From positions 74,897,824 to 74,961,823 of the forward strand of contig JARDVH010000099.1 in the NCBI GenBank assembly GCA_030324005.1: DNA of 64,000 bases, read 5' to 3'. Positions 1-26,015 of the stretch are shown in pieces. The translations under genes and the position numbers were made by a program. Source of the DNA: Negaprion brevirostris. Its lineage: Eukaryota. Position 1 is the stretch's first letter. Each line of letters opens with the position of its first letter. Below the pieces are notes generated by a model. That model did no database searches and was not told where the DNA came from. It saw only the letters and a program-made list of their open reading frames with translations.

Positions 1-1333
1 CCTTGACAAAGTGTTCCAGACAGTGTTCAAAAGTCCTCTTCAAACTCCAACAGCAAATGAACACTTCAAGAAAGGCTCAAAATGTAATGACCTGTTTATT
101 CCCAATTAGTTGGTCACTGTTGGACAGGGTTGTGTCAGGTCGTAGTCACAAATGCCATCCAGTCTTATTAATTAAAGCGAGCAGGAAATTAAATTACAAT
201 CAGTTGGGCAGCCTTTTCTACTGTATGCTTCAAATTCTTTAGCAAGATGGAATCTTGCACAAAACATGGGCTTAAACCAGCATGTCAGCTTAAGACCCTT
301 TGTGACCACTTCAGAGGTTCTTAATTGATAAAGTCTTTGTGAAAAATAACCTCTTTGTGGCTTAGATCTCCAGCAAGTCTTGGCAGAAATAACTGTTTGT
401 GACTGTATAACCAGTCCCAACAAAACCTGTGTCCTCCAGTAGCCCTGACTCCTTAGCTCCTGGGCAAAGTAGAAATACTCTGGGAAAGCTAGAAAAAAAA
501 GTTCTTCACGATCAGTAAAAGCTGTCAATCAAGGTGAAGGTTAAAGGCACAAAGCACAGGTTCCTAGTTCTATTTTTTAAAGTCTCTGTAGAATAAAGTA
601 ACACTGCCACAATATGTCATTCCAATCCTTCCCAACAGAATGACAATGCAGATGATGCTAGGCATTTGGAATACATGTTAAGCAATCTGCATAAACAGGG
701 GTCAGAAAATTACTTTGAAGTGGTGCATTTGCTCCCTACCACAGATGCAGACTCTTTCCATCTGCCACAGAAAACTAATTTTTGTTAGATAAAACTGACA
801 TTACCACATATTTCCATCAAAATATATAATATGCAGATTCCTGAGATCTGAAAAAGAAGACAGACCCTGATCCGACACAGCTGCTTCTGGTGGGTGTGCT
901 CTGTCTAGGGGAATCCTCAGTCTACCAGTCAGATGAAATTGAGATTCTGGTCTCCTGCTCCTTGATGCAGCAGTAGATACATTGCAGGACCAGGCCCATG
1001 GCAGAACAGTCACTGGCCCCTTCCTTCAAATTAACTGGATGACATTTCCACATTTAGTTAGAGGAATAGTATGACTCATTTTGATCCACCCTCCCTCTGA
1101 TTTATTATAAAACTGCATGCATCATTATGTAACTAAGCAGAGGACAGAATTAATTTTGGGTCAAAATGCAAGTAAAATTTCTTTAATTATTGACCCCAGT
1201 TGCTTCATTATTTTGGAACAACACCTATCTACTGGGGGACTGCAAATTATGTTTTTTTCCCTAATCAATCAACGTGGGATGCTCATATGAACGCCAGTGA
1301 TCAATGGTTTGGATAGAGAGCTGATGCACAGTA

Positions 1334-2070
1334 TGTTAAGGTATAGATCATAAACCCCAAAAGGATGTTATTAAGTTCAACTAAATCCCAACATTTTTTT
1401 TTCTATTTTGGCATTAGTGTGCAGGAAAGGTGTGTTTCATTCCTGGTGTGATTCTGTTAACATACTAGGAAGCCTTTATCAAAACAAACTTTATTCAAAA
1501 ATACAGTTTAACTATAACAAATGAATTAGTTCAACTTTTATCAAATGAAATACTCAAACATGACAAGACACAGTCTAATTGCTAACCTTTCTCTATTGGA
1601 TCCATTTCAAGCAATATTCTTCTTATAGACTTGTATGCTTGTACTTGGGCTGCTAGTCTTCAAGCCTCCAAAACACCTCTGGAGAGGGTGAGAGAGAGAC
1701 ACACACACACACATTTCTCCTACCAGGTCTTAAACAGCAGTCTCCACAAAGAGCGCAATTTCTTGCTTCTTTCAAGACCCAGCAGTAACTGCTTGCTTTT
1801 ACATATAAGCTTAGCTCCTCCCCATAAGCACATGATTGTCAATCAACCTACTCAGAATCCCACACTGAAACCCCAGGGAGAAAACCAAATAAATAAAAAT
1901 GTATCAGTTCAGATTGAAACAAACACAACCCTAAAAAAAATCACTAGCCTGCATTCTCAACATGAGCTGCCTGATGCCTAGACAAATTGGCACCATATAA
2001 AACACAGCTGAATTTTAAACATACCCCACAAGAAACATGATATGAATACATTTCTTAAAGGCACAGTACA
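1334..2070 (-). mobile_element. Solo LTR (737 bp), Gypsy/ERV-type
   Basis: Termini TGTTA...GTACA flanked by a 4-bp direct repeat AGTA (1330-1333, 2071-2074). Minus-strand AATAAA near 1490 and a TATA-like segment near 1800; internal (GA)n(CA)n tract. Confidence 0.65.
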
Positions 2071-2079
2071 AGTACTATG

Positions 2080-2415
2080 CTAGTAATCCAGCTGGTCAGG
2101 TGCACATCCTGGGGCAAAATTCTACTACAACAGCTGGTGGAATTTCAATTCTATTTATGAATTTGGAATTTAAAGCTAGTCTCAGTAAGGTGACCATGAA
2201 CCTATTGTGGATTATTGTAAAAACCTATCTTGTTCACTAATGTCCTGTAGGGGAGGAAATTTCCCCCACATCTTAACCTGGTCTGGCCTACATGTGACTA
2301 TGGCTGACTCAACTGTCCCCAGAAATGGCCTAGCAAGTGACTCAGTTCAAAGGCAATTCAGGATGGGCAAATACTGGCCTTGCCAGTAATGCGCATATCA
2401 AAGAAAGAATAAAAA
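2080..2415 (+). mobile_element. tRNA-derived SINE, decayed (shark family with LINE-like 3' tail)
   Basis: Shares blocks such as 'gttcactaatgtcct.tagggaggaaat', 'acctggtctggcctacatgtgact' and 'ggatgggcaaa' with the copies at 4609, 40490 and 40880. Confidence 0.7.
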
Positions 2416-4608
2416 GAGATAGTTTTGATAACCAAGAATAAAGTATAAACAAGGACAGAAGCATATTCAAAAATCTTTACACAGTCGTCATTGGGATATG
2501 ATGGTTTTTGGTTTGTCATAAGCTTAACTGAGAACTATTATTGTGAAGGTATGTTCCTTTAGCTATTCCTTCAAACCTATAGATCAATATCTTGAAGGAA
2601 CAGCATTGCATCCCCATTCTATGCAAAATATCAGCTTTCGTTTCAGAGAGGGATAATCAGTGCCCTTTTCATAGTGATATTTAGTATCAGTGCAAATAAG
2701 GCAGCTGTCATCAGACCAACCATTCTTAGTGCCAAACTAGATCCTTCTATCTGCCTAGCTGATACAAGTGCCAAACAAATATTATATCTGCACTTAATTT
2801 TACAGCATGTTTACCCTCTGCCTACTTGATGTTTTGATAGTTGCACGTTTGAAGGGTCAGGCTCCAAGTGCCATCTCATCTCTCTCTATTGCAAATGTAT
2901 GCATGCAGTCTACTCCCATTTCAAATGATTTAATTTAAATTATTGGATAATTAACTCATTTTTAGGATTTAATTCAAGTTTTTAAAAATCTGGAGTAGAT
3001 TGTAGTATAAAAGCTGCTTTGAGATTTTGTCATTTTTCTGAGACTGACCTGTGAGGGTCACAATGTTAGTGTGAATATCGATTTTTGTGTTCCTGTTAGG
3101 AAGTCAATAACAACACAGTTTAGGTACAGGTGTGCTGTGGCTCCTACCTCAGGTTTCTGGTCAAACAGTGGAAAAAATCTGATTAAAATATCAGGAAAAG
3201 TGGCCAAAAATGGAAAACCAAATTAAATTTTGGTTTTAAATCTAATAGAAAAATAAATGGCAGATTGTGTGTCAAACTGCAACATTAACTCTTCTGTCTG
3301 TACTCTATACTCAATGTCTGATCCGATACTAACTAAAGCTGACTGTGACAGTATCTATTTCACAGAATGGAAAGTAAATGTGACTTTCTTTCCTTTCTTT
3401 CCTTCATTTCTTTCTCATCTATTCAAAAGGAATCCAAACTTTGAAATGAAACCTGAAATACACAGCAAGTCAGCGAACATCCACACAAGAGATGACAGGT
3501 TAATTTTCTACTTTTATTTTGTACTTAACATTCACGTAATATTTTGTGCATTAACCTTAGTCTTTTCTCTTTAAACATTTTGTTCTTGCAGTCAAGAAAT
3601 TCTTGCTTTTGTCCATACATCCACTACTTAGAATAATAACGTTGAGAGAGATTATATGAAGACCTTTACCAGAATATGCTTCACTGTAAAAGCTGTGTTG
3701 AACATGACATCTGAATCATGTGTTATTCCTCTCTCCAAGGGGACACAAGTTCCCGATTCCAATCAACAGATTCCTGATGATATCCATGGATTGATTTTTC
3801 CCCATGACATTGCATCAAAACCGTCAGTCAGAATTGCAACTGTTGAAAACCAGCCCACATCTCCTCATAGCACATTTATTATCTCAGTGTCCTTCAAAGG
3901 GGCAATTGTTTCAGCTGGTAGGGAAAAAAATTGAATGCTGTGACAGCAATTTAAGAGCGTCAGCACTGCCATTTTGCTTACTTCAACATACCAGGTGATN
4001 NNNNNNNNNNNNNNNNNNNNNNNNNNNNNNNNNNNNNNNNNNNNNNNNNNNNNNNNNNNNNNNNNNNNNNNNNNNNNNNNNNNNNNNNNNNNNNNNNNNT
4101 TCAACATACCAGGTGATGCTCCTTCAAGACAGAGACCACTAAATTAAGTGTTATCCAACTGCGTTGCTATCTGTAATCCAGCAAAGGAAGCCTCTTCCCC
4201 GCCAAAAGAGGGATGATCTAGAAGGGCATGGCCTCAGCAATGATTATGCTTTCTCATTCTTGCTAACTTCTTAAAAGGGAAACAGATAATAATGTACCGT
4301 GTGCCCCAAGTTCCTGCTATAAATCTTTTTCAAATCTACATTTCTGATGAATTCTGAAATGCCTCAACATGTTTTCTACTTAAAAGCGCCATGGTGCTGT
4401 GAAATGTAAGTTGTGGTGGTTGTCCACCCAGCCATATGGTTAGAGTGGCCCCAAATAAATTAATCCTATAGAACTGAAAGAAAGTTTAAAATAATATTAT
4501 TTGGAGTACAATGTGTTCTCTGACTCTGTAGAAGTTAGAAAGAACCAACTAAAGGGCCTCAATACTGTAGATTGTAGGGGCACTATTCTTTTGTACGACC
4601 CTAGCCCT

Positions 4609-4900
4609 GGGAGGCAGTGACATAGTGGTATTTTTGCTGCATTAATAATCCAAACACCCAATCTAACGCACTGGGAACATGGGTTCAGATCCCACCACAG
4701 CAGATGGTGAAATTAAAAGTCTAATGTGACCATAAAACTTTAGAGAAGGAAATCTGCTGTTCTTACCTGGTCTGGTCTCCATGCAACTCCAGATCCACAG
4801 CAGTGCATTTGACTTTTAACTGCCCTCTGAAATGGCTTTGCAAGCCGCTCAATTCAAGGCATGGGCAACAAATGCCCACATCCCATGATGATTTAAATAA
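4609..4900 (+). mobile_element. tRNA-derived SINE, same family as 2080-2415
   Basis: A-box-like 'ggcagtgacatagtgg', B-box-like 'gggttcagatccc', shared core, and tail 'cccacatcccatga'. Confidence 0.75.
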
Positions 4901-4949
4901 ATTCTGATCAACTAAAACCCCATAGCTAAGTGCTGCATTAGATATGATT

Positions 4950-5008
4950 CCTAGTGTCACAAGTAGGCTTACATTAACACTGCAATGAAGTTACTGTGAA
5001 AATCCTAG
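4950..5008 (-). mobile_element. V-SINE 3' tail fragment
   Basis: 'tagtgtcacaagtaggcttacattaacactgcaatgaagttactgtgaaaatcc' matches the tails at about 20495-20545 (+) and 51262-51325 (-). Confidence 0.65.
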
Positions 5009-5152
5009 GTTTGTGCTCAACTTTCTGTTCAAACGCTGTTCAAATTCAAATCCAGTTTCTGCACTGGTTCCACTACTAAACTGACCAAAGTCTCTAGCAA
5101 TATCTTCTGTGAATACAGCCATAGCAAAATATCCTCCATAATCTGTTTATAG

Positions 5153-5586
5153 CAGTGGTGGGCTACCTGCATCCCAGAGCCACATGGGACCTTGACACAT
5201 TTTGCTGAACATTGCCACTGCGCAGGGTTGCCACATTCCACTGATTTCCATCCATTTTTTTTCCTGCTAGTATGCCTGAAGTGATCCAAATACAAGAACA
5301 AGTGAAGTGAGGTGCATGCTAATTGCTCACAACATTGTCTATGCAAGCCATACACTCCCTCCCTTCCAAAGTGTAAATATTTATTTTGCTTTTACTATTT
5401 GATGACAGTTCTATCAATATATTAATGATTAAGCATTTTCTATAACTCATTATGAAATTGACATTTATTAAATGTATTCAATCTTATTCATGACGTTAGT
5501 GAACAAGCTAATTTCAATCTTGCGGCCCACCAAGATGGAGGGGGGCCACTCGTGGCCCACTGACTAGCCTAGGCTGCCTATCACTG
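5153..5586. mobile_element. Non-autonomous hAT (Charlie-like) DNA transposon
   Basis: TIRs CAGTGGTGGGCTACCT ... AGGCTGCCTATCACTG; 8-bp TSD gtttatag/gtttatgg (7/8 match). Confidence 0.8.
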
Positions 5587-5839
5587 GTTTATGGTGTTTA
5601 CTTTCCCTACTTCAATTCCACCATCTCTTACATTATTCTCCATTGAAGTATCAACTTCTACACTCACCTCTTCTTCCTTATCATTAATTTCAATTGTCCA
5701 AAACTTTAGTACGCATGCCATGTCCTATTCATCTTGCGGAATCTTATCTTCGCCCACCTTCTCCATCCTTCTGTTTCCTCTGGCCCTTTGTTTCTGTGCA
5801 CCTCAGTCTCCATTTGCCCCACTTCACACCTATTTGCAA

Positions 5840-5935
5840 CTAAAGCAAAATACTGCAGATACTAGAAATCTGAAAAATACATAGCAGGTCAAGCAGCACC
5901 TGTAGAGCAAAAGAGTTAATGCTTCAGGTCAATGC
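5840..5935 (-). mobile_element. Penelope-like terminal repeat fragment
   Basis: 'aaagcaaaatactgcagatactagaaatctgaaa...gcaggtcaagcagcacctgtagag' is the reverse complement of the element at 55931-56045. Confidence 0.55.
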
Positions 5936-7849
5936 ATCTCAGAATTAAGTATTTTCACACTTTCATTTCAGTCTCACCTGAAATTCCTCAATTATTTTGC
6001 TTCCCCATAACGTGCTTCAAATTTAAAAATGAGTNNNNNNNNNNNNNNNNNNNNNNNNNNNNNNNNNNNNNNNNNNNNNNNNNNNNNNNNNNNNNNNNNN
6101 NNNNNNNNNNNNNNNNNNNNNNNNNNNNNNNNNNCAAGTGATGGAGGCAGAGGTAGAACAGGAACATTAATATTTTTTCAAAGTAAACAGCTCAGCAAGA
6201 GAATAGCAAGAGTACAGGCAGCTAGATCCTAAAATCCAACTGCAACTTGAACTGCTGTTGAAGCTGAAGTTACCACAAATGCTGACACTAGACTCACCTT
6301 CCGTTAATCTACATTTAAATATCTAATTCCAATTACAGAGCCTCAAGAGGCCTGCATTTTTCTCACTACCTACTAGCTCAGGAGTGGGAAATCTACATGG
6401 CTGTTGTTTTCCTTACATACCACTAGAACCTGACAGCTGCCTACCTCATCAGTGCCACGTATAATTGAAAAAGCACAACTGAGCAATGACAAAGATATTC
6501 TATTATTGGTATTCAGTTGGCAAGGTGATTGAACTGCTGGTTCTGTTTTGACTGTTAAATCAATCAGATGTTTGATTATAGGCACGAGAAACAAATGATC
6601 CCTCACCCTTTATCTGAAAAGAGACCATAGGCAGAAAAGTTGAGAAAGGTGGTAAATCTTTCTATTGCTGGCCCTCAAGTTGGCTACAAGTTCCTTTGCA
6701 AAAGGTACAGTCCATAAGAGATTCCCTGCTGACCCATAGTTTGCTGAGATTGTTGTTCATTCACTGGCAGGTGTCTGCTAAGACACAGAAGTAATTGGTA
6801 GCATATTAGTGAGTGCAGGCAGTCTGCCGATAGTACCTGCTACTTGTACTGACATGGCTTCTTTCAACTTGTATAATTTCAATCATATTTGAAACAAGCC
6901 AACTTAGTGACATGACTGGGCTCTAAAATTTGTACTTGGATGTCTTGTCACTCAGACACGTGTAGTTGTGTGTTTTTTAAATTTCAAGCTGTGTTCTAAT
7001 CCCGTAAATATTTCAATTAGCTTTCTGGCGAATTTGGATATTTTACTTATAGTCTGAATGTAAACATTCCTTACTGTGCATGGGATACAAACAAATGTCA
7101 GGATAATTTAAAGAGAGCACTAAAAGGGCAGTGGAAAAATGAAAATATTCCATCTAGCCCTTTAAGAACTCTATCACATGTAGCTTTCCTTTTCATCCAC
7201 GACATTTGGCCAAACAAATTGTATGGCATGATCCGAGTCAGCTGTGCTTTATTAACACTAATTGATTATAATATTTAAGTTAAGCTCTTGCACAATTTCT
7301 GTAAGAGAACCTTGGGCTGATTGAAAGATTGTATGCTTTGTGAATCAAGTGGTGGGCCTGCAAAAAAAAGGGTTCCCTGCCGGATATTCCAATGCCAATT
7401 GGGATCAAGCCAACAGATGGAAAAGATACTCTATCCTATCGGCATCCTGTTAAATAGGGCTGTAACACTTCTTCAGTTGACATAGATACGTTGTACCCCT
7501 CTATAGTAAAAATGTAAGCTTATTTTTCTTGATTTTTGCAGATAAGTTAGCTTTTATTGATATCTTCACTTTGTTCATTTCCATATAGATCAGATATGAC
7601 TGTAGAACTTTTATATACCTGCAGATACAAATTAGCTGTGTGGCCATTGCTTGACTTTCAGATCAAGCTATCACTAAGCTTTCAAGGTGGTGTTATAGAG
7701 GAAGTCAACTTCACAGAATCAATAAGCTGACTCATACATTTCATCAAGTATTGTTTCTGCATCGCTTCATTGCTCTTACAAAGCAGATACGGTGCAATAC
7801 TTACCTGTTAGACAGCAATGAAGAACATGCGTTGTAAAGTTACCTAAAA

Positions 7850-8268
7850 CAGTGGTGGGCAACCTGTAACCAGAGGTCCACAAAACATTTTGTTGACAGT
7901 GGTCCACACACAGAGTTAACACATTCTGCTGATTTCTGTCCAAGTAATTTTTCTCCTATCATTTTGGCTGGTGAGATGCACATAAAACAAGGGTCAAGTG
8001 AAGTAAGATGCTGATTGCACACAACATTGTATGCAGAGGGAACACGGCTGTCGCTGTCAAAGAGTAAATATTTATTTTGTTTTTACCATTTGAAGATGAT
8101 AGTTTTATTACCATATTTCTAACTTTTGAAATATCGTGCGTGTTAAACGTATTTAATCTAACTCATGGAGTCATGGTTGGTGAGCATGCCCAATTTCAAT
8201 CTTTGGCCCACTGAGACGAACAAAGGCCACTAATGCAGCCTTTCACTATCTTAGATTACCTATCACTG
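7850..8268. mobile_element. Second, more decayed copy of the hAT MITE
   Basis: TIRs CAGTGGTGGGCAACCT ... AGATTACCTATCACTG; internal 'gtaaatatttattttg' and 'aatttcaatctt' shared with 5153-5586; TSD not recognisable. Confidence 0.7.
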
Positions 8269-8589
8269 CAGTATGTAGCTACAATTCTTAAAGTAAATGG
8301 GTTATGTCTGATACAAATCTATAGATCCGTTTTATTTTATATATAATTTGATTTTTTTTGCTAAATTGATGCAGAATGAGTGTCATTTAGTTGTGAGAGC
8401 TTTGTCAGTCCATTATTGCAAAATACAGGTAGCAATTTAATTTAATAGAAGCTGAGGTCACTGATGTCACAGAATCAATGGGTTGATTAATGAAAATAAT
8501 GAACTTATTGCTTTCTGTAACACTGATAATTCTTAGGTTTTAAACATATAGAATTATTATGGAATTCAGAGAGGATCTAACCATCTTCT

Positions 8590-9232
8590 CCTGATATTGA
8601 ATGGCATTACAATTGTTGAATCCCCCATTATTAAAATCCTGGCAGGAGTTACTGTTGACCGGAAACTGAACTGGACTAGCTATATAAATATTGTAACAAG
8701 AAGTTGAAGATTGGGAATTCACCTTCTGATCCCCAAAGCACATCAACCATCAACAAGGCACACGTCAGGAGTGTGATGGAATACTCTCCTCTTGCCTGGA
8801 TGAGTGTGGCTGCAACAACACTCAAAAAGCTTGACAGCAGCCAAGATAAAATCGGTCCAATTGATCAGTACCCCACCTACTGACTTAAGACGTTCATTCT
8901 TCCACCACCAATGCACAGTGGCAGCAGTGTGTGCTATATACAAAATGTACAGCAGCAAATTACCATGGCTCCTTTGATAGCTTCTTCCAATGCCTACCAC
9001 CTAGAAGAACAACCTTTCCCCAAGGGAAACAATGCATATGAAAGTTTCCGCCAAACCAGGTACCATTCCACCTTGGAACTACAGAATCGCTCCTTCACTC
9101 TTCACTGGTTCAAAATCCTAGAACTCCCTGCATAACTACACCAACAGTACGCACTACCACCTTCTCAAAGGCAATGAGGGATGGTCAACAAATGCTGGCA
9201 TAGCCAGCAACACCTGTATTCCATGAATTAAA
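8590..9232 (+). mobile_element. CR1/L2-superfamily LINE 3' fragment
   Basis: Degenerate RT C-terminal text (caaggcacacgtcaggagtgtgatggaatactctcctcttgcctggatg, about KA.VRSVMEYSPLAWM) and tail 'caccttctcaaaggcaatgagggatggtcaacaaatgctggc'. Confidence 0.75.
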
Positions 9233-9878
9233 ATATGTATTAACTACATTTTTAATACATCTATGACATACAGTGGTGTTACAGACTACATCATCATGAT
9301 CACTTTGCAAAATATATATGGGTATACAAAGTCAAAAAGTGAAGAAATATCAATTTTAGTTGTTAGAATGCAGCTAGACCAAAACTATTCCTTGCTACAT
9401 TTGTACAGTTCCACCTGGGCTATCCGACATTTCACCTAAAGTGCGGACGTGCACTTTCCATTGCGGATCATTGCATATTGATCAAAAGCTGGAATCCTGA
9501 TTAACCCGTGGGGATGAGGTTAATTGCATGATCCTCAGTGGTGGAAATTGGGACTTAGAGCTGCCCTAGTGAAAATATTTATATGAAGCCTGCAGCCCTA
9601 CCATATTCCTAACTGTTAGTTGATCCACTCATTTACTACTGTTCTCTAAGCATATCACTACTTCTTCTTTGTTTGGTCTTTTCAAACTACATTTGATGTT
9701 TTAGTTAGTTGTTTTCCAGGATATTCTATTGAATTAAAAATAATGTACACTTTACCGAAATGCATTGCTAGACTATTTTCTAAAACAGCCTGGCACAATT
9801 TAACAAAGTGGACAGAATTGAATGGTTTTCTCATGTTATACGCCCTATCGAACAGAGTCCACTTCCTGTTTTGCACAG

Positions 9879-9931
9879 CTGCACAATCTGATGTGAACCA
9901 AACTGGTCACAGTAAACAACATTTGGTATGA
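9879..9931 (+). CDS. Candidate terminal coding exon of SDCCAG8 (convergent neighbour of AKT3); frame uncertain (LHNLM* or xAQSDVNQTGHSKQHLV*)
   Basis: Acceptor-like ttcctgttttgcacag| ending 9878. CACAATCTGAT (9882-9892) can encode QSD, as in the recalled human SDCCAG8 end (LPSMPQSDC). Position downstream of AKT3 fits known synteny. A plus-strand AATAAA lies at 11187-11192. No upstream SDCCAG8 exon was recognised in the window. Confidence 0.35.
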
Positions 9932-11779
9932 AGCTTATTTCTTCTTTCCTAGAAACAGGAAGTTCAACAAAATGTGGCTGAAATGAATTTCTGTCACTCT
10001 GTGACTTCACTACTTCGAATAACAAGAGTCATTCGCTTATCGAAACTCATTTTCAAATGCAAAGGTTACTTATACGCTACAGATTTATTCAAGTGAAGAT
10101 GAGAATCACTAGCATGACACACTCTTTTTCATAGGGTAGGTCTGCAAGAGACTAAAATGAGAGGTTTTTGTGAAACACTTGTTTACTGGAGCAGTAATTC
10201 TAACCACTGGTGAAATTCTAAGAATCTAGCAGATGTGAGAAATAGTGCAGTTAATAGAGGCCTATTTGCTGAAAACTAGACCTAAAATATCTATTTTCTG
10301 CCTCCCTTTTCAGCCTCCTCTTATGTCATAAGAGCAGCAGACCAACAAATGATCAACTGGACGCCAGCCTGCAACAATATAAAAAATCATTTTAATTGAT
10401 TAGTTTTGTACATATTTTTGATATCATACGATTAAATACAGGTATACTGTGATTATAAAAAGGTCAAGCATGGCCATCTCATATATGTGTACTGCTATCA
10501 TGGTGAGGTTTAATTTGCTCTTCAACATTATTAGATTACAACTTCTGTTTGTACATGAGAATCACTATTGCAAGTGGTCCAAATGCTTGACTTAAGTTGA
10601 AGGGAAACATGTTCCCATCTTGTTCAGTCTCATCTAGTGGCGTTGCTTGAAGTGATGCACATGATTTTATAAAAATGTTTCTTTGCTTCTGCCTTATATC
10701 ACTTTATAATAGTCAATGATCCAGTTTAAAAGTAGATTTTGCTGAGTCCATAGCAGCAAACATAAGCAGCAATATTTGGTTTCAAAAATGACAACCTAAC
10801 TCTGCACACACGAGCTTTTTATTTTGTTTACCAGTTGTGTGACATTTGACCTGGATTTCACAGACAACTTGATATCAGCCTTCTTCAGTATTTTGTTTCT
10901 GTACTGAAAAGATATATGTAANNNNNNNNNNTATGTAAACCAATACCTGTATAAATTATTTCATACATTTATCTCAATTGAAAGCCAGCTGTGAACTTTG
11001 AGATGCTATCAATTCAAAATGTATGCAAAAGGTGATAACTATTTTGATGTTTACGTTAAAATATATTTTCCTACAAGCTCTCGAAATGAGTACCTTTCAT
11101 TCTTATGTATAACCCGATGTAGAATGTTGCTCTGATATAGAATATTTTTGCACTTTTCATTTTACCTTTTCACATTATCAAGACTCAATAAAATGTTTGT
11201 TATTCCCATTTCCCTATTTTACATGCAGACATTTCCCAAATTATTTTCTTGTATCTGGATAAATATGAAAGTGCCATTTCTGTAAAAATAATAACTCTTT
11301 CCATTGTTTGATTTAATCTGCATACAGAAATTGTAGTAATGCAGGTAGCATTCATCACCTCATTTTCCTTTCACAATCATAACTTTTTGGCTCAGTCTAC
11401 TTTTTTTTAAAATTAGAAATAAAATGTCAAATAATTGATGAATAGCAAATGTCACACCCACTTTCAAAGGATCCTGCATTCCCCTCAGGATCAGCTGTAC
11501 CATTATAGCAGTTAACTTTTCTTTGGTAAACTACCCGAGTAATGTGAGATGAAGCGATCAAAGTACTTGGAGAGAAACAAGCTACTAGGAACCTGAAAGG
11601 CATGTTTGACAAATTACAGAATTAGCAGATGAAGGAACTGCAATGGAGATGGTTTTATGGCTTTTCAAATCCATTTGATGGCATTAAGAGGAATGCAGCC
11701 ACATGGACATGTTGCTATTTGGAGGGCTGAAAGAAAAGTGTGAGGTTAAAAAGACACCTTCTGGGCAGTAAGGAACTGG

Positions 11780-11990
11780 TAAGTGAAAGGAGGCATTTCA
11801 CAAGGCAGTCACCCAATCTGCATTTGATTTCTTCATTGTGGAGGAGACTGCATTATAAGCAGCAAATACAATATAATAGTTGAATGTAGTACAAGTAAAT
11901 CACTTTCACCTGGACGATGTGTTTGGGCCCTTGGACATTGAGAAGGAGTGAAGTAAATGAAACGCATTGCAGATTATCACTTTTACACAC
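11780..11990 (-). mobile_element. Penelope-like element GIY-YIG endonuclease relic
   Basis: Minus strand resembles QVK..FTCT.FN..YCI.C..C.LL...E.K.RLGD, with stops and frameshifts. Confidence 0.55.
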
Positions 11991-14900
11991 CCATGGGTCA
12001 GTTCAAGTTGGAATACTGTTTTAGTTACCACATTAAAGGAAGGATCAAGGGAAATAGTGCAGTGGGAGTTTACAACAGGGATTACAGATCACATTATCAA
12101 AATAGACTTCAGAAGTCGGACCTTTCCATTTTCATTAACAGAAGAGTTAAGGGAATGACCTAGTAGATTATTTCCAAGATTGTTAAATGTTATCACCAGC
12201 TGCGATAAGTTAAGCTAATATTTATTCTCTATTGTAAATGACATTACAGGCACTATCTACCTGACAGTAGATAAAGTTAATGAAGTATTCTTCAGCTGCC
12301 ACTAGAGGCTCCTATACATATTATATCCAAGCTTGAAAGAGGCAGTGACATATCTACACATTCTGTCTTGAATCCTCCCATTTCTGATCTATATGCTGCC
12401 TCTCAGCAACAAAGACATGTCAGATTCCGTATCTATGCTGATGCTACCCAGCCCTAGTCTACTATCACTTCTCTCAACCACATAGCATCCTGCACCACAA
12501 CGTAATGGATCTATTACAGAGCAAAAACTGCTCTGATGCATCAATTAAATCATTTGAAAACAGTTGGACAAATTGCTGTATTGAAGATTACTGGACTAAT
12601 ATAAACCAAAAGTATTAAAATGTCAACCAAAATAATGAATATAGGAATACTTAACCCATTTTGTGTAACAATTAGTCTTTTGCACATATATGCTCAGAAA
12701 TACATCCAGGTATTCTAAATAAAAGGGTCTAAGACAAATTTATTCAACTGTAGTTTTCAATTAACATCTTTTGCAGAAAGTCCTGAAAATAATCTTTAGA
12801 GATCTCATGGTGAATACTTTAGAGATATCATAGCCAATTAGCAAGAATTCAGGAACTGAAGACCAATATTGACATCTAATGAATGAGGAATGCAAATGAT
12901 AGATCCCTGGTTTAGAAAATATTCCAAATCTATTCTTAACTATTAAGGTAAACACTCAAAATGGGAGGCAATGTATATTTTGGAACAATTGAATTTTGAG
13001 ATAAGTTACAAGGTTAACTCAAGTCACGATCTTTGCACGCTTTTCTGCTTCTAATATATACCAGTCAATTTCCTATGACATTGTCAAATTCAAAGGTGGT
13101 CTTCAAGGGAAGGATGACCAGGGAACATGGATGTAATTTAATTTCAATTTACAAGTCATAACCCATATTTTTATTCTCATGATTTAAAATTGTAACACTA
13201 AAAATAAAGTTATGGCAACTGCATCATGAACAAGAGTTGAGTTTGTATAGGTCATTCCATTACAAATGTGGAAAATGATGCAGATATAATTGATATTTTT
13301 CTCTACATAAACACACACACGTCAATTTTTTGTAGCATTGCAACAAATCAATGTTGCACGTAGTTCAAATGAGGCAGTCAGAAAGTTAGAGAGGTAACAC
13401 AGTGCCAATTTTAAAGCCACACATTTCATCCCTATTTTGATGTACTTTTATTTGATAAATAATTAAGGAAAAGAAGAACTTGCATTTATATGTCATATTT
13501 CACAACCTCAGCAAATCCCAAAATGCATAAGAGTCAACGTACTCAAATGTAATCACTCTTGTAATGTAGGAGACAATTTACAGCCCTTCAAGAAACAGAG
13601 CATAGCATTGGTTGGAGTGTAGACATTTTGCTACAATAGCGGCTGAGGAGCCAACAGACAAAACTGAACAGCTTCAGTGTCATTGGCAGGTGGGTGTGTT
13701 CACAGCATAAGATTACATGAGCAATTTCTATTATAAACATTAACATAGATATTTAGATGGACAAATTAACATAGGAAGTTCTTGCAGATGTGAGATTTTA
13801 ATGACTATTGATAAAATTACCACATATAAATAGCAACTCTGAACCTGATACTCAAGGCAGGACAAAAAATAAAACAATCAAATTCAAAAGGAATAGTCCC
13901 TTTCTACACTTGATTCCTTACCTGAGCTGGAGTTGTGCCTACTATGACTCATTTGTGCCTGGAAAAATGTAGTTTGGATATCCTCTGGTAAAGATGAACC
14001 TAATTTTGGTGAGTGTGCAAGAGTTTATACTTGCAAGAATTATGTGGCATGGAAAATGAACAGGTACAGGGGGAAATTCAGCCTTAAAAAGTATCCCTGG
14101 CCCTCTGAATTTTGAAACTAATTGTGCCAGCATCAAAACAGCAGAAAATAAAATGCTGACGATGAGGTTAGCATTAGTCAGTCAGTACCAAGGTATAGCA
14201 AATATTGACATTAATGTGTTAATTATAAAAAAACTAAACTCATATTTGAAGTGAAAAGCTTTGAAAAAATTACACAAAGTGCTAAACTACAGCAAAATAA
14301 ATGATAAATGTCAGAATTAAACTCCTGTTTTGTATGGGCACTTGATCATTATGGCCAATGACTGGAGAGGAAATACAGATGCAGTTTAAAACAGCCCTTC
14401 ATACAACAGAGATGGGGGGAGGGGCAGAAAGAACACTGTCAACACTAACACAAAGCTCTGAGGGGACAGTTTGAGAATGAACTTTCCCTTCACCTGTAGA
14501 GTAATTGGTGTGTGTAAAAACACAAAAGAATGAATTAGAGAGTGTCCATAGCACATTTTATGGTTGAAACAGTGGTATTGGGAGGGCGGAGGGGGAATGA
14601 AAATATACTCAATTATGAAGAGCTTCCATTTAACAAAGTATCAAATATATCATGATAGATGGTTTTGTGAATTTGGCACCAACTACACTTAGCCATATTG
14701 AACAAAGAGCACCAGGTATAATTCCTCATTTATGCTGAGTTGGGCCTGAACAGCTAGGATGCCAAATTCAGCTTCAGTACCATTAGCTAGGGATGAAAGA
14801 AAAAAGTAGAGTATTACCACTTCTAGCCATAGATTTGGATGAACTCAGGTCTGAGGTTCTCAATGGTTTTAATTACATCAAAACTCATATAAGTTCACAT

Positions 14901-15049
14901 CCCAATAAAAGCCTGCTGGCACACTCAGTAGGGTGAGAGTCGAGAAAGGGAACTTTGAGTTGGGAGAAGGGGAAATTGTAGAAAATAATATGCAAAACTT
15001 AATACCCATTCATCAGAAACAGAATCAGTATTTGCAAGATTAGCAATCT

Positions 15050-17621
15050 ATAATGTGTGACAAAATACATAATTATTAATATTGATCTTAGCACAATTCA
15101 AATTTAAGATCTAAAGAAACATAGAGAACTTCATTAAGCAAGTTAAACAGGCCTCTACATGGTAAAAATAAAATCTACAGGTCTACATAGCCAGTAAAAC
15201 AAAGTAATTGAACATTTATAGAAAATAATTGTATGCTTTATGTATGACTGGAATATACAGATATCACCCCAACCTCACTCAGCTATTTACAAAGACACTG
15301 CAGTGCTAACATGGCAATGACATTCGCCGAACAGTATTTTAATTCCCCTGCAGTAATTACATGGTTTATGACCTGATATACTATTGCATCAACCTACATC
15401 ATTACAACAATAAAATGTTTGATTTAGAGATTTGATTACGTAAAGACTACAATATAGCTGAATAAAGAGAATAGCAGCTTTTTTTCTCTTGACAAACTGC
15501 TAAAACAATGAGAAAATGCAAAATCTAATTTGCAATTTAAAATAATAAATCTTAAAAAACTTGTATTCAATTGAATTTGGAATCAAAATAAAATTTTGTT
15601 AGCAGCCCTAGAAATATGTTACAGTATTTTATCGATCAATGTTCAATATGCTATTTTAAAAAGATTTTCCCAACTGGTCCAAGGCAAATTTCATATACTA
15701 CTGCCAAACAGACATACACAAGGTAAACAACCAAATTAGTAAGTANNNNNNNNNNNNNNNNNNNNNNNNNNNNNNNNNNNNNNNNNNNNNNNNNNNNNNN
15801 NNNNNNNNNNAATAATGTGCATCCCTATCATATACATTTATGTGTAAAAATACTAAGGATGTACAGTGTACAAAAACATTTTGTTGCAGTTTTTCACATC
15901 CTTGTGGGTCTTATACTTAAGGAAATAAACAGTTAAATTTTACCAACAGTAATACAGTTCACTAAGGTTCTTAGTCCCTTCTGCTTACAATCCTTAACCA
16001 TATGACTAGATCTTTATGCATTTAATGACAGAACTAGCAAAGGTCAAGAACTTTCACAAATCCTAGGCTACACAGAGGCAAAATTAATGACCAATTTAAG
16101 AATTTAAAATAAATACTTTACATCTTTTTCATGCTCATCTGTAATACACTACTAGTAGCAGATACAGGAAGTTCTATTTTTAGACAGTACAAATAGTAGC
16201 AGCAAAGTGTGTACATTGAGGTGTAATATATAGACCCTGCAGTTAGTAGAGGACCCCACCTTGTCACCTTGCCAGTATACTGTAGTAGCAACGCATTGCC
16301 TCAACAAGGAGTGGTAAACCTTGTGAAGCTGCAAATAAGGTGAATACATGTGTTATAGTCATAAAAGCATTTAGATTCAAAATGCCACAGGAATGTGACA
16401 ACAAATGGATTAGTGTTAAAGCAAAGCTATGGAATCTTGACAATCAAATAGGAATGGCCTGTTGCCCAAAGATGGCTGCAGTACAAGAGGGCATACTCAG
16501 TCAGGAAAGGTAATTTCAGACTTAATCCTTGAAGATCTAGACTTTGCACAGTAAATATATGAAAGCCAGTAAGCTAAGCAAAGTACAAAACCTTATGGAT
16601 TGACAGTTTGAAAAACCTTGTACAAAAAAAAAGACTAGCACTGTAAAGTTGGTCAGCCACCATCTATAAGCTTCCAGTAATAACTGTTCACTGATGGTGT
16701 AACTTATCTGACACAAACAAACGATCATTACAACTAAAAATAAATACTACATTTGTTTAACGTGTACATTCAAAATCAACATCAGAAAAAAAAGCTAGTC
16801 CACAAGTTTACAGGCAAACATTACTGTTTACCAATCAAGGCTAGGTGGCATGAATACTATACTCACATAAGTTTGGTGATAATCATAAATCTGAACATTA
16901 TGCCTGTCTATATCCTTCAGCCATCATAAAACAAATACAGGCAGAGGTGTGGAGTATCAAAAGTTGTGAAAAAATCTGCGATTGCACTTGATAAGTCTAT
17001 AACAAGTTTTCTGGGCTGACTAAACTTGAGCCTTCAGGTACATGGGTTGGTACTAACTTTAACATTGACAGGGATTGAGTCCTGGCAACTATCACAAATA
17101 CCCATTTTCAGCCAGCTATTAACGACACCAGCTCATTTCTTCAGTGATATGTCTAACAAAAACCTTGCATACTTGCCATACATCACAAACAAATGCTTGC
17201 TATGAATAGCAGAAATTAATATCACAAAAGGTACACAAGTTGCATCAGGTGCTTAAATTTCATTTTTTATCATTATTGTGAAATTTTGTCAAATGCCTTC
17301 TTCAGCCTCTATTAAAATTCTGTTCCATTTACAGGCTGAAATGCATAAGTGCTGCATCATGTACAATACATCCTATTAGGACTTCATATGTTTAAAAATA
17401 CTCTTTGCAGGACATTATGTCAAAATAGTAGGAGGTAACAGCTTGAATCTTCAGACTGACATTTAGATTCATGCAAAAAACATTCAACTTGAAATGATTC
17501 CTGAAGATGCCCTGCCTCTGAAATCAAGTATAGCTCAAACTCTTATACTGTTCAGGAATGATTTCCAGTGATACACCATGACGACAGCTGAGCAGCAAAA
17601 AAACAGAAAAGACTTGACGTC
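15050..17621 (-). other. AKT3: AKT3 3' UTR (minimum plausible extent; may continue to about 12.7-13.4 kb)
   Basis: Repeat-poor AT-rich sequence directly after the stop codon. Minus-strand AATAAA candidates seen at 13447-13452, 13170-13175 and 12739-12744. The true end cannot be fixed from sequence alone. Confidence 0.6.
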
Positions 17622-17707
17622 CTATTCTCTTCCACTCGCAGAGTATGAGAACTGGGGGAAATGAGGCCGTCTTTCATTGTCCATGCAATCCATACCATCC
17701 TCATCAT
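17622..17707 (-). CDS. AKT3: AKT3 terminal coding exon (86 bp coding), hydrophobic motif
   Basis: (Y)[30 protein letters not shown]; acceptor cacag|AT. The end SASGRE and [15 protein letters not shown] match AKT3 rather than AKT1 (SASGTA) or AKT2 (SASIRE). Confidence 0.98.
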
Positions 17708-19909
17708 CTGTGATGAAACAAAGATTGTTATATTTCAGACAATTATTTCACAATAGATCTTATCTGAGCAAATTTATCTTTAGAAGCTGCAGTTTTTTAA
17801 AGCATTTCTTGAAACTGAGTTGTTTAGGGTTCTGCTCCCTTTATGATTTTATATCCCACAGGCCATATTAAAAAGTATTCCAGTAAGCTGCACCAATTAA
17901 CCAATACAACTGCCAGTTTTAGTTATATATTAAAACAATTCAATAACAATTAGGAATAGAAAATACTTGTTGAATCATAATGAGAATCCTTAAGAACCAG
18001 CATGTTTACATGAATAGAAAATGTTCATTACACCCAATTTCCCAGGCACAATATAGCACAACATTTGGTTATTACAGCTAATAGGCTAACACATAATTAT
18101 ATGCACAGAGTCAGAGTTTCAAGCTTTTAATGACAGTAACAGAGGTAAAAATATAATGAGATAAAAGGACTAATAAATATATCCATTTTTATTTGTGCCA
18201 CTGCAACCATCAACAGTGTCTGAAATTTAGCATTTGTTTTACAATCACATTCAATGAACAAATTGGGGATTTGCATTAACACTAAAAATAAATTACTCTG
18301 TGATAACTATGTAGCTGTTTCTAACTTAACAGCACATTTGATGCATTTTTGAAGGAAAGGTTTGATGTAGTAAGTTTTGACAATTCTTCAAAAGGAAGCC
18401 AAGACAATGGTGATGAGGATAAAAATAACAGGTGCCCTTCCTTTGACTCCTTGAGTTACACATACAAAACTGCTTCCGTATTCAATCTTTGCTCTCAATT
18501 GTTTGAATTTTAGCAGTGAAGTGCTGCTCTTAGAAGATTGTTGCACGTGGTTCAGGGTGCTATTCAGCTTCTCTCCAAAAAGGAAGGAAGTGATTCTGGA
18601 AATAAATGTTGCTACAGTATTTGAAGATAAGTTTGCTAACATGTATGTAACGCCAAATGTTTTTTTTAAAATCAGAATAGTTTTTACCTTTTCCTAAAAT
18701 TCTAAGTCACAGAAGCAGATGGACAAATATATTTGTCTACCACTTTAAGTCTGAGCTTGAATTGATGTGTCGCAAAGAACTGATACAAAAAACATGACTG
18801 AAATAGATGGTAGTAGCATTGGAATTAATATACTTGATCATTTTATTCCTTCAGTGTGTTGATTCTAATGTTAACTGTTGTTTCATCATCACTGCAGTTA
18901 CATTTTCATTCAACTGCTGCTTGATGGGTACTTTCATTACACTGGGTCAGCAGCAGATACAATTCTTCGAGGTTAATTACCACATTGAAATGAAATCCTG
19001 CATCAATGAGGCAACTTCTTTTTCCATGAGTTGCTGTAGGGCGTGGAATTTTCAGGCAAGTTTTGTGGCAAACAAAACAAATCTCTTTTACACTACTACG
19101 AAATAAACTGGTACATGTTGCCAGCCAAAATCAGAAATATGGAACTTTAGCCGCTGAGGTATGTGTACTATTAGTGCAAGGGCAATGATTTGTCTTAACA
19201 GTGAAAAATACGCAAAATGAAGTTTTGTTATCCGTTGATTAACTAGTTGAAAGTCATAGCCCATGTCCTTGATGTTAAGGTAACAGAAATAAGTTTAAAA
19301 CCTGAAACAAGCCATTAGTTTCCACCAGAATGAATGGATCAATATAAATCAATTAATTTTAGTTCAACAAATCATACTTTAAATATTATCCTTTAAGCCA
19401 TGTACACCAAATCTGCAATTATTTGGAAATCTACTAGGCTGACCCCTTCCTGATAATTCTCAGTAGAGCGGTATTTAATTTCCCTCAGGTGTACACAGAG
19501 ATTAATCCTTTATTTCCTTATATAATAAGCTTAAGGTTTTTTTCCTGGAATTGTCCAAATATGCAATCAAAAATCCATCTGAATGTTGTTACATGCCTAA
19601 GTTTAGTGTTCTCTACACCTGGCAGGGCATCTCAAATCTGCTGTTTACTTAGTGATTCATTCTCGAATCTGCTCAGAATAACTGACTACTTACTGCTTTA
19701 AGAAATTTTGGGCATTTATTTCACATAGTAATGGTAGTACAAATGCATAACACCAACTTAAAGATCTTAAACTGTGCATTTTGCTGCTCTATTGGGATGG
19801 AACATTGCGTTTTGCATTATCTTTTATTATTTTACTTTATGAATTTTCACACACCTTCCTTTCTGGATTGGGGAGGAAAAAGTTAACCAGCTCCAAAAAA
19901 TCTTCTTTT

Positions 19910-21255
19910 AAATTTATTCTTTTACACTGGCTAGGAGGCATTTATTGCCCATCCTTAATTGCCCTTTATCACCTTCTTACATCATTGCACAGTCCACATA
20001 CTGTAGGTACACCCACAGTACAATTAGGAAGGGAGTTCCAGGGTTTTGATCCAATGACGGTGAAGGAATGGCGATATAGTTCCAAGCCAGGACATGGCGT
20101 GTAATTTGGAAGGAAACTTGCATGCAGTGTACAAATGCATTGTCTGCTCCTGACACTCAATACAGTAAAGGTTGCCAGTTTAGAAGGGACTGTTGAAGGA
20201 ACCTTGGTGTATCGCTGCAGTGCACCTTGTAAATTATACACATTGTTGCCATAAAGCATCAATGANNNNNNNNNNNNNNNNNNNNNNNNNNNNNNNNNNN
20301 NNNNNNNNNNNNNNNNNNNNNNNNNNNNNNNNNNNNNNNNNNNNNNNNNNNNNNNNNNNNNNNNNNNNNNNNNNNNNNNNNNNNNNCCCGTGTCTGCGTG
20401 GGTTTCTGCCAGGTGCTCCGGTTTCCTCCCACAGTCTGAAAGACATGCTGGTTAGGTGCACTGATCTGAACAGGTGCCAGAGTGTGGCAACTAAGGGAAT
20501 TTCACAGTGTCAATGTGAAGCTTACTTGTGACTAATAAATAAATTTTACTTCTGAGCGCTGTTGAAGTTGCACACATAAAGGCAAGCGGAGAGTACTGCA
20601 TCACATTCCTGACTTGTACCTTTAGATGGTGAACAGGCTTTGGAGAGTCCAGAGGTGAGTTACTCTCTGCAGAACCCCTACCTATTGATGTGCTCTTGAA
20701 GCACGAGTATTCATCTTCCCAGTCCAGGTTTCAGTCAATGATAACCACCAGGATGTTGATAGCAGGGGATTCAGCAATGGTAATGCCATTGAATGGCAAA
20801 GGGAGATAGTTATATTCTCTCTTGGAGATGGTCATCGTCTGGCATTTGTGTAGTGCAAATGTTACTTGCCACTTATCAGTCCAAGCCTGAATGTTATCTG
20901 GTGTTGCTGCATATGGGAACAAACGTTTCATAATCTGAGGCGGTGTGAGTGATACTAACACTGTGGGCTCATGAACATCCCACTAATGCCTTCATGATGG
21001 AGGCCCTAGGACATTACCCCTAAGGAACTCCTGCAGCAATACCCTGAACTGACATGATTGATCTCCAACAGCCACAACAATCTTGCTTTGTACTAGATAT
21101 AGCTCCAACCAGTGGAGAATTTTATCCCCGATTCCACTCCAATTTTGCTTGGGCTCCTTGCTTCCACACTCAGTCAAATGCTACTTTCATATAAGGGCAG
21201 TCACTCTCACCTCACACGAATTCAACTCTTTTGTCCATGTCTGAACCATGGCTGT
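19910..21255 (-). mobile_element. CR1/L2-superfamily LINE (same family as 8590-9232), interrupted by a gap and a SINE
   Basis: ORF fragments IQAWTDKWQVTFALHKCQTMTIS, ILHWLELYLVQSKIVVAVGDQS and HSFTVIGSKPWNSLPN; tail 'ggcatttattgcccatccttaattgccc' near 19937. Confidence 0.8.
20387..20550 (+). mobile_element. V-SINE (HE1-like), 3' half, nested in the LINE
   Basis: V-domain 'cccgtgtctgcgtgggtttc...tgctccggtttcctcccacagtc' and an (aata)n tail; 5' half lies in an N gap. Confidence 0.8.
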
Positions 21256-21261
21256 GCATAT

Positions 21262-23039
21262 GGACATACAAACTAGAAGTAGGCCACATGGCCTTTCGAA
21301 CCTGCTTAGCCATTCAATAACGTGGTTGATCGGATTGCACCAACTCCACATTCCTGCCTAACCTTGATAACCTTTCATCCCCATACTTATCAAGAAGCTA
21401 CTGAGTTCAGCCTTAAAAATATTAAAAGACTCTGCTTCCTGCGCTTTTGAGGAAGGGAATTCCAAAGACACAGTCCTCTGATGGAATTACATTTGCTTTT
21501 TTTTCAAATCTAATGGACCCTTCCCCAAAATCGAGAGAATTTTGGAAAAACCTGATTTACAGCTATTTCTGGGATGTTAGTTGTATCTTCAGTGAAGACT
21601 GATGCAAAATCCCAGTTCAATTCATCTACCAATTCCTTATTTTCAATTATTAATTNNNNNNNNNNNNNNNNNNNNNNNNNNNNNNNNNNNNNNNNNNNNN
21701 NNNNNNNNNNNNNNNNNNNNNNNNNNNNNNNNNNNNNNNNNNNNNNNNNNNNNNNATTCCCCAGACTCAATTTCCCTGGGATCAATGCTCATTTAATTAA
21801 CTTTAAATATCTACAGAAACTCTCAACACATTTAAATATTTTCAGTTAGCTTTCATTTGTACTCCAATTTTTATTTCCTTATCAATCTTTTCTGTTTTTT
21901 ATACTCTGTCCAATCTCCTGACCTGCCACTATCTTTACGCAATTACATGCTTTTTGTGTGTTTGATACAGTCCTTAACATTTTTTTTTAAGTTAATCATA
22001 GAAGGTTGGTCCTGCCTTTAGAATTTTTCTCTTTGGAACATTTCTGTTCTGTGTTCTTAAACGTCTATCACTGCTTCTCTTTTGACCTTTCTTTCCCTTA
22101 ACATAACTTGTCAGTTCACTTTACCCAACTATGCTTTCATGCCCTCATAATTGCTCTTATTTAAGTTTAAAATACAAGCCTTTTGACCTACTGTTCTCTT
22201 CCTCAAACTGAACGTGAAATTTATTCATATTATGATCACAGCTACCCAGGGATGTTTCAATATGAGGTCATTAATCAATCCTATTTTGTTGCACACTACC
22301 AAGGTTAGTATAGCCTGTTCTCTGGTGGTGCCAGAGATGCCATTCAAAAAACCATCCAAAAATATTTTATGAATTCCTCATCTAGGCTACTTTCGCCCAT
22401 CTGATTTTTCCAATCTAAATGCAGATTTAAATCCTCCCAGGTTATCACCAGACCTTTCTGACAAGGTCATATTATTTCTTCCTTTATACCCCACTCTACT
22501 ATATAGTTACTGTTACAGGACTTGTACATCACTGCCACAAGTGACTTCTTGTCTTTATTGCTTCTCATCACTTCCCAAAACATTTCCAACCCTGAATTCC
22601 TGAACTTGGGTCATTCCTCTCAAGTATGCTAATACCATCATTAATTAACAGAATCACACCTTCGCCACCTTTTCCTAGCTTCCTGTCCTTCCTAAACGTG
22701 ACGCATGCTTCAATATTCAGGTCCCAATCTATGTCATCCTGCAGCCGTGACTCTGTAATGCCTATCTAATGATATTTATATTTGTGTTCTCAGTTCATCT
22801 ATTTTGTTTTGAATGCTGATACAGAGCCACAAAGCCTTTTGACCTTTTATTTTTATACTATCTAGCCTTATCTGCTGATTTATTCTTAGATTTGTACTCC
22901 CTGTCCTTTCCCGTCATGGTCTGTTTATCATTTTCCACATTAATATGTTTCTCTCTGTCTTGTTTTTAAGCTTACCACATTTCCCCAAATGTGATCCCTT
23001 GCCCCCCCCCTGCAATTTAGTTTAAAACCCTCTCTATTT
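21262..23039 (-). mobile_element. CR1 LINE, decayed and internally deleted
   Basis: 3' UTR-like end near 21265-21480; LIIENKELVDELNWDFASVFTED fragment; endonuclease-region text near 22670-22745. Confidence 0.7.
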
Positions 23040-24187
23040 NNNNNNNNNNNNNNNNNNNNNNNNNNNNNNNNNNNNNNNNNNNNNNNNNNNNNNNNNNNNN
23101 NNNNNNNNNNNNNNNNNNNNNNNNNNNNNNNNNNNNNNNAATTTAGTTTAAAACCCTCTCTATTTTCCTAGTTATGTTGCCCACTAGAACACTAGTCTCA
23201 GCACAGTTCAGGTGTATTCTGTCCCAACTGTATAGCCTCCCCTTCCCTCAGTGTTGGTGCCATTACCCCACAACTAGAACCCTCTTCTCCCACACCAATT
23301 TTTGAGCCTGTAATGTTAGCTGAAATCTTTCACCATAATGTTTATTATCTTTATAGCAAGGGTTCAAATTCACACTTGTTGGTTCTTTAAAAACCAGCTG
23401 GTTTCAATTCTCCTTCACGGGTGGGAGCTCTAAGCCAAACAAATGCTACAGATGTGTAGTCATAATTGTAATGCAAGAAACACAGCACAGCAAGGGCCAC
23501 AAAATACTAACGAAGTATAGCAACCAGATAATCTATTAGTTACTGCATCAGCACAGCAGTGCAGTTGAGTTCAGACGTTTTTGTATGTGATTCCTAGTAC
23601 CTTGTGCCATGTCATTTACCACTAATTCAAAATTATCCAGCCTTAGTAGAATGACATTAAAAGTTAAGTAGCTACATCATAAAAGTTAGATACAGCAAGA
23701 ATGTCAAAAGTTGATTCACTGTGGGATATTCTGCATATTTCAAGTAATATTTAGCCTTTTATATTCTTTCACAAAATTTTAATGCTTAATACAATTAGTG
23801 ATTGAGCAGTGATCAGATTAACATGGGTTCCATAGGATATCTTTACGCAACTTCACGATCAATTGAAAAATGCAGATGAGTTCACCCAGCCATAATTTAA
23901 GAAAGCTCAACTCAAAATGTAATTGTAATTCTATATAATTAACAATTTACAAACAAAATAAAATGCTTTGCTGCAAGAGCATTAATTAACTGGTACATTT
24001 TAGATAATTTACTTTGATACAAAGCTTGTGTAATAAATTGATTTCCCCAAACAAAAGCCAATATGTAACTACAAATATGGCAACTATGGTAAATTTAAAG
24101 TAAATTACACCTAGATTTTCAAATATAATTTTTATTTAATCCAAATTTACCAACATGATGTTCTCTTACGTACAGATGCTGCAAACT

Positions 24188-24830: not shown

Positions 24831-25216
24831 ATGCTTTACTTCTTTGGGTGGCAAGACAGGAAACACCACCATCTAAAAATTCCTACCCATAGAAATAAAA
24901 TGTTTAGTTGTAAGTCTGGGTTACATGCTCCTGATCTTCCTGAAAGCTGGTCTAGAATATATTCATTTGCTATGCTCTTTTCACCACTATAGAGTGAAGC
25001 CAAAGATGGTAAATTGAATGCAGTATAAATATTATCTCCGTTTAGTAAATGGAGCTGGAAATGAAGTTCTAAAAGGCACAATTTTCAGCAAGTTTAAGAG
25101 TTAATATCTTTGCAGAAAGGGCACATCCTTAGGCAGGGCCACACTTACAATCTAATGATGAGAGATGAAAAATACTGTTACATACAGTGGTGAAAGGACT
25201 ATTAATTGTTGCTTAC

Positions 25217-25319
25217 ATTTTTCAGGTGGAGTTATTGTAATGGTCTGAGCTGTGAACTCTTCATCAAAATACCTTGTGTCTGTCTCAGATGAAACTTGAG
25301 GCTTGAAAGGAGGCAAAAG
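25217..25319 (-). CDS. AKT3: AKT3 penultimate coding exon (103 bp), AGC C-terminal tail with turn motif
   Basis: [34 protein letters not shown] + T; acceptor ttacag|CTT, donor T|gtaagc (phase 1). Confidence 0.98.
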
Positions 25320-25924: not shown

Positions 25925-26015
25925 TTACCCTAACTAGTCCCCCTGACACTAAGGATCAATTTAGCATGGCCAATCTACCTAACCCACACATCTTTGGAGA
26001 TGTGAGAGGAAACCA
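25925..26015 (-). mobile_element. V-SINE fragment
   Basis: 'caatttagcatggccaatctacctaacccacacatctttgga' is the reverse complement of the core at about 47188-47230. Confidence 0.65.

Follow-up and report, generated by a model that had tools for sequence, protein, structure and literature searches.

The question raised by this locus is whether sharks carry, at the 3' ends of AKT3 and SDCCAG8, the exon of two genes on two strands that can be traced in mammals, and if so at which bases. The mammalian AKT3 isoform 2 (PKB-gamma1, AKT3 -S472) uses a 3' alternative last exon which replaces the hydrophobic motif, as set out in passages of three papers (PMC7703976, PMC6873690, PMC8306188), and mouse Sdccag8 and Akt3 are described as convergent, or 'tail-to-tail', in the part of PMC5812623 that deals with them. 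The passages of PMC6395382 on the Sdccag8/Akt3 locus hold nothing on exon overlap. We analyzed a window of 64,000 nucleotides from the lemon shark Negaprion brevirostris (contig JARDVH010000099.1, 74897824-74961823; positions are those of the window), in which gene order and strands are the same as at the mammalian locus. An earlier note on this DNA had proposed that positions 9682 to 9931 form such a two-strand exon, one that may date back to the jawed-vertebrate ancestor.

The mammalian tails which that note had cited were both found in protein records: the guinea-pig AKT3 record P0076 ends CQQSDCGMLGNWKK and the buffalo SDCCAG8 record P0189 ends LPSMPQSDC. When back-translated together with their acceptors the two tails were antisense-compatible at exactly one offset, at which the SDCCAG8 exon shares every one of its 30 coding bases. 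The scan pattern made from them has 46 positions and is a degenerate back-translation from two species (buffalo, guinea-pig) rather than DNA. A metagenome scan with this pattern gave six matches, all six of which look like chance prokaryotic coding sequence, and Rfam gave no match in window positions 8000-26000.

Exons and 3' ends of the two shark genes

The minus strand carries AKT3, whose exons here start at 53126, 46709, 25319 and 17707, and the plus strand carries SDCCAG8. The features that define their 3' ends are as follows.

25217..25319, minus strand: AKT3 penultimate coding exon, 103 bases, phase-1 donor, from sequence and record match
17622..17707, minus strand: AKT3 canonical last coding exon; it contains FPQFSY and agrees 100% with a shark AKT3 record
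10818..10823, minus strand: AATAAA, predicted AKT3 poly(A) signal from the sequence; read on the plus strand, these bases form the T-rich tract of acceptor 10835
10314..11389, plus strand: likely SDCCAG8 last exon, phase 0 PPLMS-stop (10314-10331), 3' UTR reaching 11389 or beyond; AATAAA on the plus strand at 11187 and 11418
9953..10093, plus strand: minor alternative SDCCAG8 last exon of the Heterodontus annotation, tandem acceptors 9953/9959 (scores 5.2/6.0), a candidate in this species

The canonical exon and FPQFSY are kept in 40 of the 41 chondrichthyan AKT3 records found among the 120 matches listed out of 778, the remaining one being an elephant-shark model whose tail did not map in the window. 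Two shark AKT3 records (P0135, P0380) carry an insertion of 33 residues between the kinase domain and the penultimate exon, which was not found in the window. A usual poly(A) site consists of an AATAAA followed by CA and a GT/T-rich stretch. On the minus strand the AATAAA at 10823-10818 is followed by CA at 10804-10803 (14-15 bases later) and by GT/T-rich sequence to approximately 10783; among the variants listed for 10818-10857 in four sequencing runs there was only T>A at 10824, which keeps the hexamer. Low-depth unstranded contigs of run X1 covered 11369-12298 and 12327 onward, beyond the SDCCAG8 contig of that run, and are such as would be given by a long AKT3 3' UTR. In human, too, the main AKT3 mRNA ends where the last exon of SDCCAG8 begins.

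For SDCCAG8, the 12 Pfam CCCAP matches listed include ten exons that lie upstream on this contig and an eleventh on a different one, and an exon 67 kb upstream is the same as that of Mustelus asterias in 45/45 residues. The middle exon that lies on another contig (L012, G000:C140:15803842-15803982, minus strand) shows that the gene is incompletely assembled. The penultimate exon was found neither between contig position 74828001 and the window nor genome-wide, and probably lies in an assembly gap.

To score acceptors we built a smoothed matrix on the 16 true AKT3 and SDCCAG8 acceptors of this genome, a small training set whose members scored 0.7-7.6 in leave-one-out. The AG at 10312-10313 scored 7.1. 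The exon which it opens reads PPLMS-stop in phase 0 and LLLCHK... in phase 2, and both endings occur in shark and ray records. We classed 62 chondrichthyan SDCCAG8 records by tail pattern, three short unnamed fragments having been dropped; these are predicted isoforms of 21 species and not independent of one another. The last exon began at 10314 in 42 of them, at 9953/9959 in three and at 9879 in none, 17 having other endings, and 19 of the 21 named species use the 10314 exon. The Heterodontus record P0010 has a tail that maps to 9956-10093 with 61% identity.

Contigs from sequencing runs point to the same start. Four runs (X1, X2, X3, X6) of 18, from three studies, were used as evidence of presence only, the libraries being unstranded and guessed to be RNA. 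In 4/4 runs a contig began at this exon, at 10311 in X1, X2 and X3 and at 10314 in X6, and the X1 contig continued unspliced to 11389. Before 10311 the contigs carried unaligned letters (117 in X2, 66 in X3 and 2582 in X1, the last taken to be on the same side), which we infer to be upstream SDCCAG8 exons. The shark SDCCAG8 last exon thus likely starts at 10314.

Several other observations were made around this gene. An unspliced X2 contig over 9904-10158 spans the tandem acceptors 9953/9959. Window positions 3425-3505 (plus strand) are 89% identical to a cassette exon of the Mustelus SDCCAG8 isoform X2, which in Mustelus takes the place of the penultimate exon and is spliced to 10314 in phase 2. 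Compared with bony vertebrates, sharks have about six more codons in the penultimate exon (..SGNVTGK), and skates and catsharks have alternative donors within it. At 9152-9230 there is a short high-copy repeat on which many unrelated contigs pile up.

The stretch at 9682-9931

Two overlapping candidates had to be considered here.

9682..9902, minus strand: proposed alternative last exon of AKT3 (73 codons); its AG is weak and its open frame likely due to chance
9879..9931, plus strand: candidate SDCCAG8 last exon, QSD in phase 1 only; likely unused

What the earlier note had read from the letters of the minus strand was confirmed: the AG at 9904-9903 gives an exon start at 9902 which is in frame with the AKT3 phase-1 donor after 25217, and the joined product, FWFTSDCAAVQNRKW..., runs for 73 codons to a stop at 9682 and lacks FPQFSY. 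On the plus strand the AG at 9877-9878 and the QSD codons at 9884-9892 are likewise present, but QSD requires phase 1, while in phase 0, the phase in which the upstream SDCCAG8 exon ends in annotated sharks (the phase being taken from those sharks and not from this assembly), an exon from 9879 reads LHNLM-stop. The acceptor scores were -1.7 for 9902 and -0.9 for 9879, each below all 16 of the true acceptors.

The ungapped match of SDCAAVQNRK to SDCGMLGNWK, which had been put forward as a sign of homology, proved to be common by chance. Its BLOSUM62 score of 25 was equalled or exceeded at 11 of the 1600 AGs that the minus strand has below the donor, at 10 loci, and at 31 of 8017 AGs across the window, and when anchored at the junction the match ranked 295 of 6032. 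The SDC of the minus strand is also one codon out of register with the mammalian tail. At the DNA level the mammalian pattern at 9869 ranked 39-1275 of 128,000 over 24 settings, so that neither as protein nor as DNA is the likeness of 9879/9902 to the mammalian element better than chance. A frame of at least 73 codons was opened by 1.25% of 1515 phase-1 AGs, which is a point in favor of 9902; since the mammalian tail has 14 residues, however, this length is no sign of homology. A protein search with 72 codons of the frame of 9682-9902, a weak search, returned two candidates and no match.

Neither strand of the stretch was used in the records: no SDCCAG8 record among the 62 starts its last exon at 9879, and the tail from 9902 occurs in none of the 41 chondrichthyan AKT3 records among the 120 matches listed out of 778. 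Among the contig ends listed for the four runs in 9000-12400 there was no joint or loose end at 9902 or 9878, and no contig covers 9829-9903, so coverage is uninformative there. The site thus has a phase-1 AG that continues the frame of the AKT3 penultimate exon, and a tail without the hydrophobic motif, but it is not antisense to the SDCCAG8 last exon in use and its plus acceptor is wrong for phase 0. With weak acceptors on both strands, the wrong plus phase, a chance-level peptide match and no record, we judged that 9879/9902 is probably not a two-strand exon. The SDCCAG8 last exon that the earlier note had tentatively placed at 9879 maps instead to 10314, an outcome which that note had itself named as contrary to its reading, and 9682-9931 is likely non-exonic DNA between exons, with a chance likeness to the mammalian element.

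A candidate counterpart at 10818-10853

Approximately 950 bases downstream of that stretch, within the SDCCAG8 last exon, a second site surfaced in the null list of the peptide test, through its minus-strand AG at 10850.

10835..10849, plus strand: likely corresponds in position to the start of the mammalian SDCCAG8 last exon, AG 10833-10834, phase 0 LCDI-stop, inside the shark 3' UTR
10828..10850, minus strand: likely corresponds in position to the mammalian AKT3 isoform-2 exon, AG 10852-10851, phase 1 CQMSHNW-stop; a candidate only
10741..10760, plus strand: resembles the forward primer for mouse Sdccag8 exon 18 and lies 75-94 bases upstream of 10835

CQMSHNW aligns to the mammalian tail as CQ, a gap of five codons and M..NW, with C, Q, M, N and W identical, and as an anchored peptide it ranked 6 of 6032. 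The acceptors scored 3.3 for 10835 and 1.5 for 10850, the latter above 2 of the 16 true acceptors, so that both fall in the range spanned by true sites. Both AGs stand in the mammalian arrangement and frame, with a spacing that is 15 bases shorter, equivalent to one gap.

With one gap allowed, 10835 ranked 1-18 of 128,000 for the mammalian pattern over 24 settings, the site having been seen before the model was chosen, and it was the top match within 10314-11389 in 24/24 settings. On either strand of the window, CCAGTT followed in frame by TGACCT occurs only at 10818-10853. Three minus-strand positions scored 17.3-17.6, near-equal to the 17.6 of 10835, and the match is therefore significant only within the 1.1-kb last exon and not window-wide; such gapped matches occur about four times per 128 kb, and the chance of one within the 1.1-kb exon is roughly 0.03. 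In the ungapped test 10835 was outside the top 8, and a first gapped test with a steep gap cost missed it, placing the site at 9900 sixth on the plus strand, ahead of 10314. As an independent check, the mouse exon-18 forward primer (PMC5812623) matched here tied-best, as one of three loci among 6396 tiles on both strands, while the reverse primer had no match (1/2 primers matched). Duplication among the 9879, 10314 and 10835 regions was unsupported (p 0.25-0.81).

On this evidence 10835 is quite probably orthologous to the mammalian SDCCAG8 last-exon start. Mammals start that exon at the shared element and read nine codons, whereas sharks start 521 bases upstream and read five codons, which leaves the element in the 3' UTR. 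The proposal of the earlier note that the overlap dates from the jawed-vertebrate ancestor finds no support at 9879/9902, but with the site at 10818-10853 the reading that the two-strand element predates the shark/bony-vertebrate split gains support.

In the viper Vipera latastei three AKT3 records (P0084, P0086, P0372) have CQ after PPEK and then, at a distance of ten codons, ILG; in mammals MLG follows after five codons, and in the shark site M follows directly. These CQ isoforms could be the same element or intron read-through.

Alternative readings, preferred model and meaning

That 9879-9902 is after all a conserved two-strand exon we regard as very improbable. Besides the in-frame AG and the long frame it agrees with the mammalian pattern at ten consecutive positions in the QSD region, which is 445 bases from the used exon; the 9900 site is the best gapped plus-strand match in 1-17600 under one scoring, and an X2 contig ends at 9904, an end without a loose part that was not counted as a junction. 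Weak acceptors on both strands, the wrong plus phase, the SDC one codon off, the rank of the DNA pattern and the lack of any record that uses it weigh against these points. Somewhat less improbable, though still doubtful, is the reading in which it is exon 10314 that truly corresponds to the last exon of mammals, 10818-10853 being a chance match. The 10314 exon is in use and has the same phase; PPLMS shares xPx[ML][SP] with the buffalo and paddlefish tails and is nearer to bony-vertebrate tails (rank 37 of 3931) than is LCDI (rank 1497), and a white shark SDCCAG8 record ends LPVML. However, its nucleotide pattern ranked only 154-2666 of 128,000, the minus strand lacks an AG where one would be expected, the mouse primer scored 19 near 10335 vs 23 near 10835, and the 10314 and 10835 sites show no sign of being duplicates (p 0.81).

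A further reading accepts the site at 10818-10853 and takes it one step beyond: sharks would also splice AKT3 from 25217 to 10850, giving a minor AKT3 which ends CQMSHNW and lacks Ser472 and the hydrophobic motif, so that isoform and two-strand element would both be as old as the jawed vertebrates, the poly(A) signal having seeded acceptors on both strands. The phase-1 AG in the mammalian position with its acceptor score, the five shared residues and a single five-codon gap that is a multiple of three favor it, a terminal exon of 50 bases would easily be missed by annotation and contigs, and an X3 contig ends at 10852. That end has no loose part, however, and was not counted as a junction. The contigs of X1, X2 and X6 cross 10835 and 10850 unspliced, and these contigs are unstranded; none of the 62 SDCCAG8 records starts its last exon at 10835, none of the 41 chondrichthyan AKT3 records (among the 120 matches listed out of 778) is spliced to 10850 or ends CQMSHNW, and the N-W of the minus strand is an automatic consequence of CCAGTT on the plus strand. 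We consider such splicing unlikely, though the least so of the three alternatives.

The preferred reading, which we hold to be moderately probable, is that 9682-9931 is non-exonic, that the SDCCAG8 last exon runs from 10314, and that 10818-10853 is the counterpart of the mammalian two-strand element, probably kept as the 3' end of AKT3. AKT3 is spliced from 25217 to 17707 with the hydrophobic motif kept, as the sequence and 40 of the 41 records show, and under the preferred reading would continue through a predicted 3' UTR of approximately 6.8 kb to the AATAAA at 10823-10818. SDCCAG8, as the records and contigs show, is spliced in phase 0 to 10314, reads five codons and runs to approximately 11400, and the two mRNAs would overlap tail to tail by approximately 600 bases. 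The A-rich letters of a poly(A) signal, read from the opposite strand, make up a T-rich tract, so the element comes prepared to act as an acceptor on the plus strand. It serves mammals as the last acceptor of SDCCAG8, and they use the adjoining minus-strand AG for AKT3 isoform 2; sharks have both AGs with neither apparently a main site, as annotation and contigs suggest. Its place at the end of the long AKT3 3' UTR is probably what has preserved the element.

A shark product of 10850 would be like AKT3 isoform 2 in its phase, its CQ start and its NW end. It would differ in being five codons shorter and stopping after W, and it is predicted from the sequence, no shark record or contig showing it, whereas isoform 2 has been observed in mammals. 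AKT2-13a and other AKT forms without the hydrophobic motif are described in passages of PMC7703976 as having weak splice sites, an intact kinase domain and a lost motif, and the three AKT variants are argued there to be independent in origin. Unlike AKT3 isoform 2, AKT2-13a and its kin involve no exon of a neighboring gene. An AKT3 form without Ser472 has been reported to suppress mammary tumours (Suyama 2018, as cited in passages of PMC6873690 and PMC8306188). In the literature that our search covered, apart from the original descriptions of the isoform, nothing dealt with an antisense AKT3/SDCCAG8 exon or with how old it is; such an account may nevertheless be in print. Brodbeck reportedly gave the original description of AKT3 isoform 2.

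The junction 25217->10850 would be an exact handle for dating the AKT3 form without Ser472, and failing that junction the finding would say only something modest about how gene structure evolves. Should 10818-10853 be the counterpart, the tails of AKT3 and SDCCAG8 would have met at one and the same place ever since the divergence of sharks and mammals. This would also offer a simple route to a two-strand coding exon, in which the bases of a poly(A) signal act at the same time as a pyrimidine tract, to which one of the genes later shifts its last acceptor.
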